Below, piece after piece: positions 12,307-32,787 of a stretch of 64,000 bases of DNA. The position numbers and the translations under genes were made by a program. Source of the stretch: Escherichia coli (GTDB lineage: Bacteria; Pseudomonadota; Gammaproteobacteria; Enterobacterales; Enterobacteriaceae); NCBI RefSeq assembly GCF_013315695.1, contig NZ_CP054353.1; one strand, written 5' to 3'. The notes beneath the pieces are model-generated. The model was given only the letters and a program-made list of their open reading frames with translations. It was not told the DNA's origin and searched no databases. Each line of letters starts with the position of its first letter. Positions within the stretch are counted from its first letter, which is position 1.

Positions 12307-13509
12307 TTACCTGAACTGATAATGACCTTCGCCCAATCGAATAACCCTTCCCTCTTCTTCTGCGCGGTTCAGCCACACACTAATTTGTTCGATGGTTAAA
12401 CCAGTACAAGACGCCAGCCTTTCAATACTTATCGATTCCTTTGCAAGGATCGCCAGTTCCGCCACAAAGAGTTGATAAAAATCGACAGGCGTATGCGCGG
12501 GCATTACTGCGTAATTTGCGTCATCTTCATGCAGCGAAAACAGTTCTGGTTGAACGTTACGGAGTGCTTTGTCATACATCAGCCCAGGAACGTCTGGCAG
12601 TCTGATCGTCACATTCTCAGCCTGTTCAGCACTCCATGACGCCCCATTTTCTACTAATCGTGAATTGGCTGATTGCACATCCTGATTTGGTTTAACCAGA
12701 ACAGGCAGCCACTGATGTTTTAACGCCTCCATCGCTCCGGTTATCGTTCCACCGGTCATTCCCGCACGTACAACCATTGCGCTTTCAGCAAGGCAATAAA
12801 TATATTTATTCCGCGCCATTGCATTGCCGACGGTGAAACGTACCTCTGGGTAAAACGGTGAAATCAACACCAGGTTGCCTGCTATAAGCCCTTCACGCCA
12901 TTTCACTAACGTACTCGTTTTTAACAAGCTATCAGCTAATACGCCAACGGCAGTTCCCCCGGCCTCCAGTGCCGACGCCATTGCACATTCATCAATACCT
13001 CGCGCACCACCAGAGATAACGCAAATCCCCTGTTGGGCCAGTTTCGCTGCCAGTTGTTGGGTATAGCGCAAATCGGCAGTCGGAGCATCTCGCGAGCCAA
13101 CAATCGCCATACCTTCCGCTTGCAGTAATGCTTTATTCCCGCAGCCAAATAAAACGGGAGGTGCATCCGTTCGCAATCGGTTTTTCAAGCGAACGGGATA
13201 ATCGGCATCTCCGCGGGTTAAGATCCATAAACCGGCGCGTTGCCACTTATCTACCGCCAACGCCAGACTATGACCACGCGCCAGCAAGCCAAGAATACGC
13301 TCCTGAGAAATACGCGGATCGCTCCAGCCTGTAAGTTTCTCTTGCGGTTGCGGCACCAGAAGATCGGCGGGACTGATACGTTGGTGCTTCAGCCATAATG
13401 CAAACTTCCCCCATTCACTATTACTAAGAGGTTTATACTCACTCGCCGCCGCGCGAGAAAAATCGCTGGTTAGCAGGAGAGTTGCTTGTGCATTGGCTGA
13501 AAGATTCAT
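12307..13509 (-). CDS. DprA/Smf-like protein; putative partner (PsyrA/RqlI-like) of the upstream helicase
   Basis: 400 aa from ATG at 13509..13507 (the ORF-track start at 13602 lies inside the upstream gene). Rossmann motif VISGGARGIDECAMASAL typical of DprA, and a C-terminal winged-helix-like tail. Start shares one base with the upstream stop (TGATG). Confidence 0.75.
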   Translation of the reverse strand: MNLSANAQATLLLTSDFSRAAASEYKPLSNSEWGKFALWLKHQRISPADLLVPQPQEKLTGWSDPRISQERILGLLARGHSLALAVDKWQRAGLWILTRGDADYPVRLKNRLRTDAPPVLFGCGNKALLQAEGMAIVGSRDAPTADLRYTQQLAAKLAQQGICVISGGARGIDECAMASALEAGGTAVGVLADSLLKTSTLVKWREGLIAGNLVLISPFYPEVRFTVGNAMARNKYIYCLAESAMVVRAGMTGGTITGAMEALKHQWLPVLVKPNQDVQSANSRLVENGASWSAEQAENVTIRLPDVPGLMYDKALRNVQPELFSLHEDDANYAVMPAHTPVDFYQLFVAELAILAKESISIERLASCTGLTIEQISVWLNRAEEEGRVIRLGEGHYQFR

Positions 13510-15605
13510 CAATTTTTTACCGAGGTAGAAGCAAGGGCAAGAGGATAAACCGTCGGGCAACCTGCCTGGCGTAACAGTGCTGTCAGAACTGTCAGCGTCC
13601 ATGCAGAATCCACGATATCATCAACCAGCAACGCCGGACCTGGCATCAAAGGAGGGGTAATCACAAACGCCCCGTCGAGATTTTGACACTGGTGAAAACG
13701 GTTTTGCTGCATTTTCTGCGGTGGATTGTCCACGACTTTTTCAATGGCATCAATAAAAGGTAAGCCAAGTTTCGCCGCCAGTCGCCGGGCAAAATCAGGA
13801 ACCAGGTCGAGGTGCCTTAATGAAGGAACGCAGCATACCCAGGTTGGTTCAGGATGCGGATTCCAGCGTTGGCGAACCATTTCCGCACATGCTTCTACCA
13901 GCTCATCACTTAAGCGCCCCGTTTTTTTCTCCTGTGCTACCTGCTTTCCCCACCCGGAATCTCCCCAACGAGAAAGGATTCGCCCCGTAGATCCTTGTAA
14001 ACCCGCAGGCAAGTTCCCTTTAAATCCGTATTGCGTAAAAGCCCCAGCTGCCACCTGTTTATTGAGATTTAACGGCAGGTCAGCGTGTTTAATAAATAAA
14101 TTTGCCGCATGGAGTAAGCCGCTATCAATGTCGGGCGACAATAACGGATGCTGAAGACAACTGCTACATTTACCACAACGTTCGGCACTTGGCTCATCGA
14201 GTGCACGGCGCAGAAATTGCATTTTGCACTCCTTGGTCGTGATATAGCTTTCAACGTCTGCCAGTTCACTTTTTCTCTGATTCATCAAATGGTTAATTCG
14301 TTCATGATCAGGAGAAAAACTGACGATAGTTCTGCGCCATAATTTCTCGGTATACACCACAGGCGATGGATTTTCCGCTACCAATAATTTCAGTGCTTTT
14401 TCTATTTGCCCATAACGAAGATTCGTCCGTTGTTCAATGCCTCGTAGGGTAAGACCGTCATTCTCGCTAAGTACGTTGAGTATTTCATGAATTTGCGCCT
14501 CCGCAGGAAAGGCGCTTTCACGGAAGAATTGATGAATAGCGCGGTCTTCACCACCACAAAGCAATATGCCAACTGCGGAATCTATAGCACGCCCGGCACG
14601 CCCCACCTGTTGGTAGTAACCGACAATAGACCCCGGCATCTGATAATGAATGACGAAACCTAAATCAGGTTTATCAAACCCCATACCTAATGCCGTCGTC
14701 GCGACCAGCACTTTGATTTTATTTGCCAGCAGTGCCTGCTCCAGATATTCCCTGGCAGTATTAGAATCTTCCGCGCCTTCACAAGTCACGCCGCTGTAGT
14801 AAGCAAATGCACTGATACCATTTTTCCTTAACCACTCGGCGACAAGTTCAGCATCGCGAGTCGTCAGGGTATAAACAATTCCCGATTTGGAAAACTGAGG
14901 GATAACCGTTGCTAACCATGCCAGACGGGATGACTGTTCTCCTAAGACTAAGGCATCAAGCGCCAAACTTTCGCGAGCCAGCGTTCCACGCTGAATCACA
15001 ATGTCACCCAATTGCTGACGGATATCCTCAACAACACGGTTATTCGCTGTCGCGGTTGTACCCAGAACAGGGGTATTCGCAGGCAGTTGGCGCAAAATAT
15101 CTAATATACGTCGGTAATCCGGGCGAAAATCGTGGCCCCAATCAGAGATGCAGTGCGCCTCGTCGACCACAAGCAAGCCAATACGATCGGCTATAGGATA
15201 TAAAACCGTTTCGATAAAGTCCTGGTTTGCCAAACGTTCCGGGGAAACCAGCAAGCAATCGACCTCACCTTGCAGCAACTTATCGCTAATGCGCTGCCAT
15301 TCTTCCCTGTTTGTAGAATTCAACGTTTCAGCCGTAATACCTAACCGTTCAGCGGCGGCAACCTGGTTACGCATCAGGGCAAGCAAAGGAGAGATGATAA
15401 TTGTCGGGCCAGCGCCGCGATCGCGGAAGATTTTACTGGCGATGAAGTACACGGCACTTTTCCCCCAGCCGGTGCGCTGTACAACCAGCAGTTTTCGCCG
15501 CTGATTAACCACTGCATCTATGGCTTCCCATTGCCCTTCCCTGAAAGTAGCGGTGGTATTTCCTAACATCCGCTGTAAAAGCAATTCAGCTCCGTGCTTT
15601 TCCAT
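13509..15605 (-). CDS. RecQ-like DEAH helicase fused to a C-terminal ComF-type PRTase-like domain (PsyrT/RqlH-like)
   Basis: 698 aa. Helicase motifs TGWGKS, VVDEAHCISDWGHDFRPDY, LGTTATA, ATTALGMGFDKPD, YYQQVGRAGRA; CGKCSSC zinc-like motif; C-terminal segment with LLVDDIVDSAWT resembling the PRPP-binding loop of type-I PRTases. Confidence 0.8.
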   Translation of the reverse strand: MEKHGAELLLQRMLGNTTATFREGQWEAIDAVVNQRRKLLVVQRTGWGKSAVYFIASKIFRDRGAGPTIIISPLLALMRNQVAAAERLGITAETLNSTNREEWQRISDKLLQGEVDCLLVSPERLANQDFIETVLYPIADRIGLLVVDEAHCISDWGHDFRPDYRRILDILRQLPANTPVLGTTATANNRVVEDIRQQLGDIVIQRGTLARESLALDALVLGEQSSRLAWLATVIPQFSKSGIVYTLTTRDAELVAEWLRKNGISAFAYYSGVTCEGAEDSNTAREYLEQALLANKIKVLVATTALGMGFDKPDLGFVIHYQMPGSIVGYYQQVGRAGRAIDSAVGILLCGGEDRAIHQFFRESAFPAEAQIHEILNVLSENDGLTLRGIEQRTNLRYGQIEKALKLLVAENPSPVVYTEKLWRRTIVSFSPDHERINHLMNQRKSELADVESYITTKECKMQFLRRALDEPSAERCGKCSSCLQHPLLSPDIDSGLLHAANLFIKHADLPLNLNKQVAAGAFTQYGFKGNLPAGLQGSTGRILSRWGDSGWGKQVAQEKKTGRLSDELVEACAEMVRQRWNPHPEPTWVCCVPSLRHLDLVPDFARRLAAKLGLPFIDAIEKVVDNPPQKMQQNRFHQCQNLDGAFVITPPLMPGPALLVDDIVDSAWTLTVLTALLRQAGCPTVYPLALASTSVKN

Positions 15606-31563: not shown

Positions 31564-31640
31564 TGATTATCTCTCTTGTTGTACCGAATGCGCGAATTCA
31601 CGCGTTTTATGCTCGCGGGGTAACATGACATGCTCGAATT

Positions 31641-31700
31641 ACAGAAAAATAACTATTTTGTTACATTTTTAAGATAGTAAGGTGTCAGAAAGATGACAAG
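31641..31700 (-). promoter_or_regulatory. Pho-box array of the ugp promoter (PhoB sites)
   Basis: Minus strand reads CTTGTCATCTTTCTGACACC then TTACTATCTTAAAAATGTAA, resembling tandem pho boxes (CTGTCATA-type), about 80-140 nt upstream of ugpB. Confidence 0.5.
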
Positions 31701-31922
31701 GCGGTGACGGCGCGGGCGAGGGAAAATGGGAGATGGGGCACGGATATCCCGAGAATGCACTGAAAAGAGGCGATTAACGGCCAGCTAATCGCCAGAACTC
31801 CTTACCATGAAGAGCAAAAATGGCAGCAAATTCTGCGTCCAGTTTTGCTGCCCGATGAGAGCTACATTTTTCAATTTTAACAAAAGATTGCCGCGACACT
31901 GGTCTAACGGCAAAGAAGATTT

Positions 31923-32669
31923 TCATTGCACCACACTCTGCTTCAGCCGTTCATTGGCGGTCTTAATCCATTCCCGGTGGTGTTTTCTATAATGTGGTTT
32001 TGAACGTTTAGCCGTATCAACCACAGCAATATACTGCTCGTTGGCTTCACGTAACCGACTCATTTTCGCCAACATTTCCGCATAGTAAATACGTGCCTGC
32101 GGGCCGGGGTAATAAGAAACAAGCACCTCAAACTCACTTTCCGCATCAGCGTATTTTTCTTGTGCGGCTAACGCTCTGGCAAATAACAAATGCCCGTCTG
32201 CCGACTGAAAATCGGGGTTATAACGCATCACATCTTCCAGCGTCTGCTGACAGGCGGCGAACTCCTGAATAGCAAATTGCACCTGCGCCAGGCTTAACAT
32301 CATTACCGCTTCATGGGCGAAAATTCCGCTTAACGCCTGCTGATAATGGGGAACGGCTTCGTGATAACGCCCAAGGCGCGCCAGTTCGTTAGCTAACGCA
32401 TAATGGTTTTGATTAGTCTCGGCAATCGCCAGCTCTTCGGTTAATTTGTGCAGGTGGCGTTCCGGGCTGATTTTGTCCTGCAGGCGCATCAGCAAAGTAC
32501 GCCCGTGACGGTCAGCGCCCGTTTCAGGCAGCATGACCATGACGAAATACGCCACGCAGCCAATCACCGGAAAACAGAAGATAATAAAAATCCAGTATCG
32601 CTCTTGTCCGGAGCGATAAGCGTGAATACAGCAAAGCAGTTCAAGCATGACGACAACGGCATAATGCAT
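31923..32669 (-). CDS. Hypothetical membrane-anchored protein: PLDc_N-like two-helix N-terminus plus TPR-like repeat domain
   Basis: 248 aa. N-terminus HAYRSGQERYWIFIIFCFPVIGCVAYFVMVMLPE resembles the PLD-superfamily N-terminal membrane domain (compare cardiolipin synthase N-terminus); the rest is helical-repeat-like. I do not recall a gene between ugpB and livF in K-12. Confidence 0.7.
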   Translation of the reverse strand: MHYAVVVMLELLCCIHAYRSGQERYWIFIIFCFPVIGCVAYFVMVMLPETGADRHGRTLLMRLQDKISPERHLHKLTEELAIAETNQNHYALANELARLGRYHEAVPHYQQALSGIFAHEAVMMLSLAQVQFAIQEFAACQQTLEDVMRYNPDFQSADGHLLFARALAAQEKYADAESEFEVLVSYYPGPQARIYYAEMLAKMSRLREANEQYIAVVDTAKRSKPHYRKHHREWIKTANERLKQSVVQ

Positions 32670-32753
32670 GGGAGGGAACCTTTCCGTGGCAAATAAGTGG
32701 TCTGGTTTTAATCCTCCCGGTCAGTTGAAACAAGTCTGTATACGGACGAAGAA

Positions 32754-32776
32754 CCCGGCAGAAGCTGGCTGCCGGG
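32754..32776 (-). terminator. Hairpin downstream of livF (possible livKHMGF terminator)
   Basis: CCCGGCAG-N7-CTGCCGGG about 12 nt after the livF stop; weak U-tract. Confidence 0.4.
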
Positions 32777-32787
32777 TATTCGATAAT

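Follow-up and report, generated by a model that had tools for sequence, protein, structure and literature searches.

The junction between the livF and ugpB genes of Escherichia coli raises two questions: what kind of protein is encoded there in the strains that have a gene at this site, and whether that gene was gained by its carriers or lost by the other strains. We analysed the junction in a 64-kb stretch of E. coli DNA (64,000 nucleotides; referred to here as the window), which matches the chromosome of E. coli MSB1_4I at 99.99% identity over its full length. An earlier note on this DNA had described a strain-variable, single-gene insertion between the ugp and liv operons, coding for a PLDc_N-like membrane anchor fused to TPR-like repeats.

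The open reading frame lies on the minus strand at 31923–32669, exactly as the note had placed it, with an ATG start and 248 amino acids plus a stop codon. RefSeq names it 'tetratricopeptide repeat protein' (WP_174183281.1, and WP_000558835.1 in strain MSB1_4I, by annotation and exact-sequence look-up). Judged by its sequence it is a genuine gene, far beyond a chance open reading frame, because it has full-length homologues with E values down to 2e-157, about 786 clusters of relatives, and a dN/dS of 0.09–0.16. It shares its strand with livF and starts 118 bp beyond the end of that gene, and the 74 positions ahead of its start codon (32670–32743, minus strand) make up a 5' leader or promoter region that is near-invariant in Escherichia and partially conserved in C. 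freundii in our alignments. This leader includes a Shine-Dalgarno-like GGAAAGG at 32679–32685, 9 nt upstream of the ATG; a promoter scan found no strong or convincing sigma-70 consensus within it, and the structure of the leader RNA is not unusual (z +1.25).

Terminator-like structures are present on both sides of the gene. The intergenic hairpin following livF (32754–32776, minus strand; CCCGGCAG / CTGCCGGG, then UUCUUCGU) has a folding energy of -20 kcal/mol and a z score of -3.87, and was also recognized by direct reading; expression of the downstream gene may involve read-through past this weak livF terminator. On the 3' side there are two further minus-strand hairpins, the first at 31822–31852 (GGCAGCAAA / UUUGCUGCC, then AUUUUUG; RNA folding and direct reading) and the second at 31769–31793, where a 10-bp stem is followed by UCUUUUCAGU (terminator scan and RNA folding). 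Beyond these, the 183 bp immediately upstream of ugpB (31564–31746, minus strand) are common to carriers and non-carriers of the gene in matches and alignments, with a match in 5,424 of the 5,426 complete E. coli genomes; from established knowledge of the ugp operon, the pho-box promoter presumably lies within this region. Thus, of the two flanks that had been described, a liv hairpin and a pho-box promoter, the hairpin and a conserved ugpB upstream region are seen here, and the pho-box itself comes from established knowledge. The flanks of the gene contain no structured RNA in Rfam at E ≤ 1. A 50-residue open reading frame at 31774–31926, overlapping the stop codon of the gene through ATGA, was rejected as a gene because its start codon is missing in E. 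albertii, other Escherichia have a short 3' tail that is different, and the terminator hairpins fall inside it.

The protein is shown to be composed of a PLDc_N-type hairpin of about 50 residues followed by about 180–200 residues of linker helices, four TPRs and a C-terminal cap. The AlphaFold model, for which 21 sequences were aligned, has a mean pLDDT of 88, exceeding 92 through the repeats and ranging from 54 to 89 in the linker (residues 52–85). The N-terminal hydrophobic hairpin (residues 1–51; 32517–32669, minus strand), which is evident in the model, the hydropathy and the conservation, has its first helix at residues 2–20 and its second at 24–51, kinked at P34, with a short, basic inter-helix loop (R19-SGQER). 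Across 62 homologues the mean Kyte-Doolittle values of the two helices are 2.29 and 2.18, and H16, W26, P34, G37, Y41 and P48 are near-invariant. The Pfam PLDc_N model (PF13396) matches residues 26–43 of the query with an i-E of 1.1e-4, a partial and weak match covering 18 of 42 model positions (22–39); because it is so short, the test was widened to 62 diverse family members, with PLDc_N recognized in 21 at E ≤ 1e-3 and in 44 at E ≤ 0.1 (best 8.7e-7). The core of the match is the motif W-x7-P-x-x-G-x3-Y (residues 26–43; 32541–32594, minus strand), found by Pfam in the query and across the family and by BLASTP to ClsA, in which W26, P34, G37 and Y41 are each at least 92% conserved among the 62 homologues.

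A basic linker with two linker helices and an invariant P69 (residues 52–85; 32415–32516, minus strand; AlphaFold, charge counts and alignments) leads into four TPR repeats (residues 86–224; 31998–32414, minus strand), with bounds of about 86–119, 121–154, 157–189 and 190–224, and helix pairs in the model at 86–112, 121–150, 157–186 and 191–222. The query matches the Pfam profiles TPR_19 (1.5e-5), TPR_2 (1.3e-4) and TPR_1 (1.4e-4), TPR_19 is matched in 53 of 62 family members at E ≤ 1e-3, and a Foldseek comparison with the PDB gave target-normalised TM-scores of 0.75–0.80 to MamA and 0.84–0.86 to consensus TPR proteins. Conserved residues of the TPR domain are mostly at the canonical structural positions of the ~34-residue repeat, where small residues are expected at 8, 20 and 27 and Pro at 32, with A93/A105, A128/P152, A164/A176/P188 and A197/A209 sitting at positions 8, 20 and 32. 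The most conserved block in both family alignments is the signature N-P-D-F-x-S-A-D-G-H-L-L-[YF]-A-R-A-L at the start of TPR3 (residues 151–167; 32169–32219, minus strand), and a Y-Y-P-G-P-E-A block at the end of TPR3 is also conserved. Family-specific TPR residues are N88, F132, S156, D158, H160, R165, E179 and E191, several of which would face the groove, as suggested by canonical TPR numbering rather than by model coordinates. The C-terminal capping helices (residues 225–248; 31926–31997, minus strand) lie at 225–230 and 232–247 in the model and include the conserved W234 and A238. No catalytic domain was found in the protein with Pfam, and there is no PLDc match. Both parts of the proposed architecture are therefore borne out, the two-helix anchor by Pfam, by 21 of the 62 members, by the AlphaFold helices and by its register with ClsA, and the approximately 200 residues of TPR-like repeats by the Pfam TPR models, the AlphaFold helix pairs and Foldseek.

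This architecture is that of a large family. An exhaustive HMMER search recovered 786 clusters (at 50% identity) with E ≤ 1e-10, and 111 with E ≤ 1e-30; the members, typically about 245–250 residues long, nearly all fall within 240–256 residues and match end to end. Full-length relatives from E. fergusonii, Citrobacter, Pseudomonas and Exilibacterium came out of a word-indexed search, and a scan of the GTDB species representatives, started from the 21-sequence alignment and using the residue 151–167 signature as a pattern, recovered 155 relatives. In the Enterobacteriaceae these are in Escherichia, Citrobacter and Pseudocitrobacter, and elsewhere in the Gammaproteobacteria they are in the Pseudomonas alcaligenes/mendocina group, in Luteimonas, Lysobacter, Pseudoxanthomonas and Rhodanobacteraceae (Lysobacterales), and in Thiotrichales-like and other gammaproteobacterial metagenome-assembled genomes; Alphaproteobacteria with the family include Bradyrhizobium, Rhodopseudomonas, Xanthobacteraceae and Inquilinus. 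Neighbours in the AlphaFold database add Xanthomonas, Xenorhabdus and Gilliamella, all with generic names, and full-length relatives there are called 'TPR protein' or 'Cardiolipin synthase N-terminal domain-containing protein'. The gene is already catalogued and its kind, a membrane-anchored TPR scaffold, is a known one; the family is unstudied, and a literature search found no paper on it.

Within E. coli the gene is strain-variable, as the earlier note had supposed. By megablast, the gene segment is present in 659 of 5,426 complete genomes, always chromosomal and in single copy. The carriers (~12%) include O157:H7, O55:H7, O145:H28 and IAI39, and the non-carriers (~88%) include K-12, O104:H4 and O103:H2; in K-12-type genomes ugpB and livF are adjacent, in agreement with the note. 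Alignments, megablast and the K-12 filler sequence delimit the whole variable segment as ~1,040 bp (31747–32787). In K-12-type genomes the match ends 183 bp upstream of ugpB (31746, query base 183), and the remaining distance up to the stop codon of livF is taken up by an unrelated 215-bp segment, with a BIME made of two REP elements in inverted orientation and with another terminator; this filler holds no remnant of the gene.

The variable segment could be a foreign single-gene module that some strains acquired recently at the ugp–liv junction, in line with the insertion proposed in the note. The absence of the gene from K-12 and 88% of complete E. coli genomes is compatible with this, as is its patchiness among the Enterobacteriaceae, with most GTDB representatives outside the three genera above lacking it. 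The junction is also a structural hot spot in which the stretch separating the gene from ugpB varies: the window and O157 have a long version with two hairpins, a short version has one hairpin, the version of E. albertii contains REP sequence, and C. freundii and Escherichia sp. MOD1-EC7003 have versions with additional genes. However, other species have the gene at this very position, immediately following livF: it is there in E. albertii and E. whittamii, in another two species-level genomes of Escherichia, in the P0001 cluster that NCBI calls E. fergusonii, and also in Citrobacter freundii, Citrobacter sp. NCU1 and Pseudocitrobacter. Its protein identity drops with species distance, from 92–96% within Escherichia to 68–77% in Citrobacter-like genomes. 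Between the window and O157 the dS of the gene (0.22) is like that of its flanks (ugpB 0.18, livF 0.24, livG 0.21, ugpA 0.14), and its GC content of ~50% is unremarkable. There are no direct or inverted repeats at the breakpoints (31747 and 32787) and no mobility genes, integrase or transposase in the segment or adjacent to it in this window, and the site in non-carriers is not a clean empty site, being filled by the BIME segment. A recent insertion is therefore largely refuted and improbable, and the term would seem to have the polarity of the event wrong. The shared slot across species, the flank-like dS, the ordinary GC content, the lack of repeats and the 215-bp filler argue instead that the polymorphism is best read as an old, expendable resident gene that was lost or replaced in ~88% of E. 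coli, a polarity that we infer. Because most other Enterobacteriaceae representatives are without the gene, 'ancestral' applies to the Escherichia/Citrobacter neighbourhood, and repeated loss is required.

The gene could also be functionless and in decay, kept only by chance in some lineages. The loss from most E. coli fits such a reading, and the E. albertii type strain has a copy frameshifted near residue 186, a few carriers, H89 and H90 among them, have truncated or interrupted copies, and the dN/dS of the gene (0.10) exceeds that of the neighbouring transporter genes (0.00–0.03), constraint being weaker on the gene. Nonetheless, values of 0.09–0.16 against other Escherichia alleles indicate clear purifying selection, in 658 of the 659 carriers 80% or more of the locus is covered, and length and motifs are conserved over Gamma- and Alphaproteobacteria, such that decay is a very unlikely account of the gene.

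What such a conserved protein might do can be approached through its hairpin. When the protein was compared by BLASTP with residues 1–90 of K-12 ClsA, W26–F42 aligned with ClsA W40–L56 at 41% identity, with W, PxxG and A-Y keeping their register; W26, P34, G37 and Y41 thereby match W40, P48, G51 and Y55 of the second transmembrane helix of ClsA. ClsA likewise has a two-helix hydrophobic hairpin at its extreme N-terminus, with W-x7-P-x-x-G-x3-Y in helix 2, and, as in the PLDc_N-TPR family, both the loop joining the helices and the linker that leads to the soluble domain are basic (PMC11698083). The two proteins differ in that the ClsA hairpin is followed by PLD/HKD catalytic domains and the hairpin described here by a TPR array ending at residue 248; helix 1 is also shorter than that of ClsA, starting at residue 2. 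With the cardiolipin synthase model in NCBIfam (TIGR04265) the protein reaches 12.6 bits, where the cut-off is 290, and the match spans residues 22–97 only.

The charge pattern bears on which side of the inner membrane the TPR domain faces. In the 62 homologues the inter-helix loop has a mean of 2.2 K/R in 7 residues, with a conserved [KR]-[ST]-G-[RQ], and the 15 residues after helix 2 have a mean of 3.2 K/R against 1.1 D/E; in the Escherichia proteins the net charge of the linker is only about +1. Because the loop is basic too, the positive-inside rule gives no clean orientation. If the loop were inside and both termini outside, the TPR domain would be periplasmic and could have an envelope role like that of YfgM, CpoB/YbgF or NlpI. 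This is the main rival to a cytoplasmic placement, and the conserved basic loop, the N-terminus of just two uncharged residues ahead of helix 1, and a best, though weak, NCBIfam match to CpoB/YbgF (TIGR02795) speak for it. We consider it unlikely, since the linker that follows helix 2 has more basic residues overall, the CpoB score of 31.3 bits is far under its cut-off of 90.1, the structural matches are to generic TPR folds, and the loop of ClsA is similarly basic with its C-terminal domain still cytoplasmic by default (PMC11698083). In ClsA the hairpin and basic linker keep the C-terminal domain cytoplasmic under normal lipid conditions (Sawasato, Dowhan, Bogdanov, Sci Adv 2025, PMC11698083). 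As the loop and linker charge pattern of the PLDc_N-TPR family is the same as that of ClsA, a TPR adaptor on the cytoplasmic face is favoured.

Several envelope-attached TPR proteins offer points of comparison. CpoB/YbgF, YfgM, HemY and NlpI likewise have TPR domains attached to the envelope, but their anchors are different (a signal peptide, a single transmembrane helix, HemY_N or a lipobox) and their compartments probably differ from that of the protein described here; the TPR region of HemY gives 18 bits in NCBIfam, where the cut-off is 142. LapB/YciM is an inner-membrane-anchored cytoplasmic TPR adaptor acting in FtsH-dependent LpxC turnover, with a single transmembrane helix, some nine TPRs and, at its C-terminus, a zinc domain of the rubredoxin type in ~390 residues. 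Both proteins have a membrane anchor at the N-terminus that leads into a TPR domain, which in our protein faces the cytoplasm under the topology favoured here; our protein differs in its two-helix hairpin, its four TPRs and its length of 248 residues without a Cys-rich domain. One family member is auto-annotated in UniProt as 'Lipopolysaccharide assembly protein B', but the LapB family gives no NCBIfam match and the C-terminal Cys cluster is absent from this protein. The small bacterial TPR scaffolds of solved structure, MamA, YrrB, TTC0263 and consensus CTPR proteins, are only 13–21% identical to it and none has a PLDc_N anchor; what they have in common with it is the TPR fold in its generic form, from which neither a common partner nor a common pathway follows.

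Genome context provides no partner. For 83 homologous loci, open reading frames were called and then grouped by BLASTP similarity, once using a GC3 filter and once unfiltered, and the Pfam-annotated contexts of ten proteins were added; no conserved neighbour or partner gene was found in either set, synteny being at the genus level only, which agrees with the description of a stand-alone single gene. The gene is next to liv/ugp genes in the Enterobacteriaceae, to tilS and ispA-like genes in Lysobacterales, and in two Pseudomonas groups either to a LOG-family gene and MscS, or to nadR-like and FAD-monooxygenase genes. No family among the PADLOC-DB anti-phage defence models was matched at E ≤ 1, NCBIfam gave generic TPR matches only, far under their cut-offs, and sequence searches of solved structures returned generic TPR proteins only, with E ≥ 0.006. 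Since no neighbour, defence model, curated family or paper was found, any mechanism, the membrane-tethered adaptor or sensor suggested in the note included, rests on the architecture and on one experimental analogy, ClsA.

The reading we favour, with moderate confidence and by analogy, is that the gene encodes a small TPR adaptor or scaffold at the cytoplasmic face of the inner membrane, and is an old resident of the livF–ugpB junction. The hairpin would serve as an inner-membrane anchor, and the basic linker would retain the TPR domain on its cytoplasmic side, as experiments showed for ClsA. The concave TPR surface with N88, F132, S156, D158, H160, R165, E179 and E191 would then bind a segment of a partner protein, making the protein a membrane-tethered adaptor or scaffold. 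With no partner gene nearby, the partner is proposed to be a widely conserved protein encoded elsewhere. Most E. coli lineages would have swapped the gene for a REP/BIME-containing spacer.

The same resemblance to ClsA allows a lipid-linked role, in which the protein would sense lipid composition or osmotic down-shock, and might itself invert or join ClsA or cardiolipin-rich domains. The hairpin motif is in register with that of ClsA, PxxG included, and the native ClsA hairpin is required for inversion of the C-terminal domain upon phosphatidylethanolamine depletion or osmotic down-shock, the hairpin of LepB being no substitute and the conserved PxxG motif being dispensable for both activity and inversion (PMC11698083). 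Acidic residues added after ClsA helix 2 promote inversion (PMC11698083), and the Escherichia linker is weakly positive; in one Pseudomonas group the gene is adjoined by one for an MscS-type channel. These are analogies only, however, as the MscS adjacency is limited to that one subgroup, lipid-metabolism genes are not nearby in any surveyed lineage, and PLDc_N hairpins are found in many unrelated small proteins (PMC3581485). We regard a lipid-linked role as quite improbable. Its strongest form, also by analogy and highly unlikely, would make the ClsA-type hairpin a lipid-responsive topological switch, by which loss of phosphatidylethanolamine or osmotic down-shock would flip the TPR domain from cytoplasm to periplasm, giving a stress-gated adaptor with different partners on each side; the weakly positive Escherichia linker would then be especially prone to flipping.

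As it stands, the gene is an ordinary accessory-core gene, and the cytoplasmic-face adaptor remains our preferred description of its product. For E. coli, the finding means that the livF–ugpB difference between K-12 and O157:H7-type genomes would reflect an old gene lost to REP elements and not the acquisition of an island. The locus marks a conserved but unstudied membrane protein of pathogenic E. coli, and its absence from K-12 may be one reason that it went unstudied. The protein shares its type of hairpin with ClsA, in which lipid-dependent topological inversion was recently demonstrated, and if a role of the family in membrane or lipid homeostasis is true, the natural presence/absence polymorphism, with carriers making up ~12% of complete genomes, would provide an experimental handle.

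The junction between livF and ugpB, where the gene for the TPR-repeat protein (the TPR gene) is located, varies in content among the genomes. In Citrobacter freundii, the interval between the TPR gene and ugpB (L003 6850-8324) contains two ORFs coding for products of 93 and 135 aa, neither of which has a match in Pfam, together with a Phd/YefM-Fic toxin-antitoxin-like pair; these additional genes confirm that the junction is a hot spot for integration. The corresponding junction of Escherichia sp. MOD1-EC7003 (L009 5802-7001) is organized differently, with a 231-aa ORF, SMI1/KNR4-like in sequence as judged by eye, overlapping the TPR gene stop codon through an ATGA, and followed by an IS200-type transposase-like ORF. 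The gene order then continues directly with yhhA and yhhX, such that this genome appears to have lost both ggt and the ugp operon by deletion.

The 176 bp tail that separates the TPR gene stop codon from the shared ugpB upstream region (31747-31922) differs from its O157:H7 counterpart at a single position (99.4% identity), whereas the TPR gene is only 95.3% identical and the flanking genes have a dS of ~0.2. Tails in other Escherichia species are quite unlike that in the window, having either a short form with one hairpin or, in E. albertii, a form containing a REP element. Together, these sequence comparisons suggest either a mosaic, recombinant history or constraint on the tail. In the E. 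albertii type strain NBRC 107761, the REP element takes the place of the second hairpin 3' of the TPR gene orthologue (L013 8001-8760), which is itself frameshifted at about residue 186.

The tail also includes most of a leftwards-oriented 50-aa ORF (31774-31926, minus strand), whose start overlaps the TPR gene stop codon via an ATGA. It is probably not a gene, as both terminator hairpins fall within it, its start codon is absent from the E. albertii counterpart, and the segment containing it is missing from other Escherichia.

Elsewhere in the window, gntU and yhgN, which are neighbours in K-12, flank two overlapping genes (12307-15605, minus strand), one coding for a RecQ-family helicase and the other belonging to the DprA family, so that the pair looks like another strain-variable two-gene module. 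Beyond nikR, a cluster recognized from the closest annotated genome (59277-63991) includes a GntR-family regulator, galactitol-type PTS IIA, IIB and IIC genes, an FGGY-family kinase and an HPr-like gene, and is likely accessory sugar-utilisation cargo.

In one Pseudomonas subgroup, and confined to it, the TPR gene homologue is convergent with a gene coding for an MscS-family mechanosensitive channel (L006 6765-7616 and eight related loci), the two overlapping by 4 bp in L006 and separated by ~40 bp in the related loci. This adjacency is of note because osmotic down-shock triggers inversion of the N-terminal hairpin of the cardiolipin synthase ClsA (PMC11698083).
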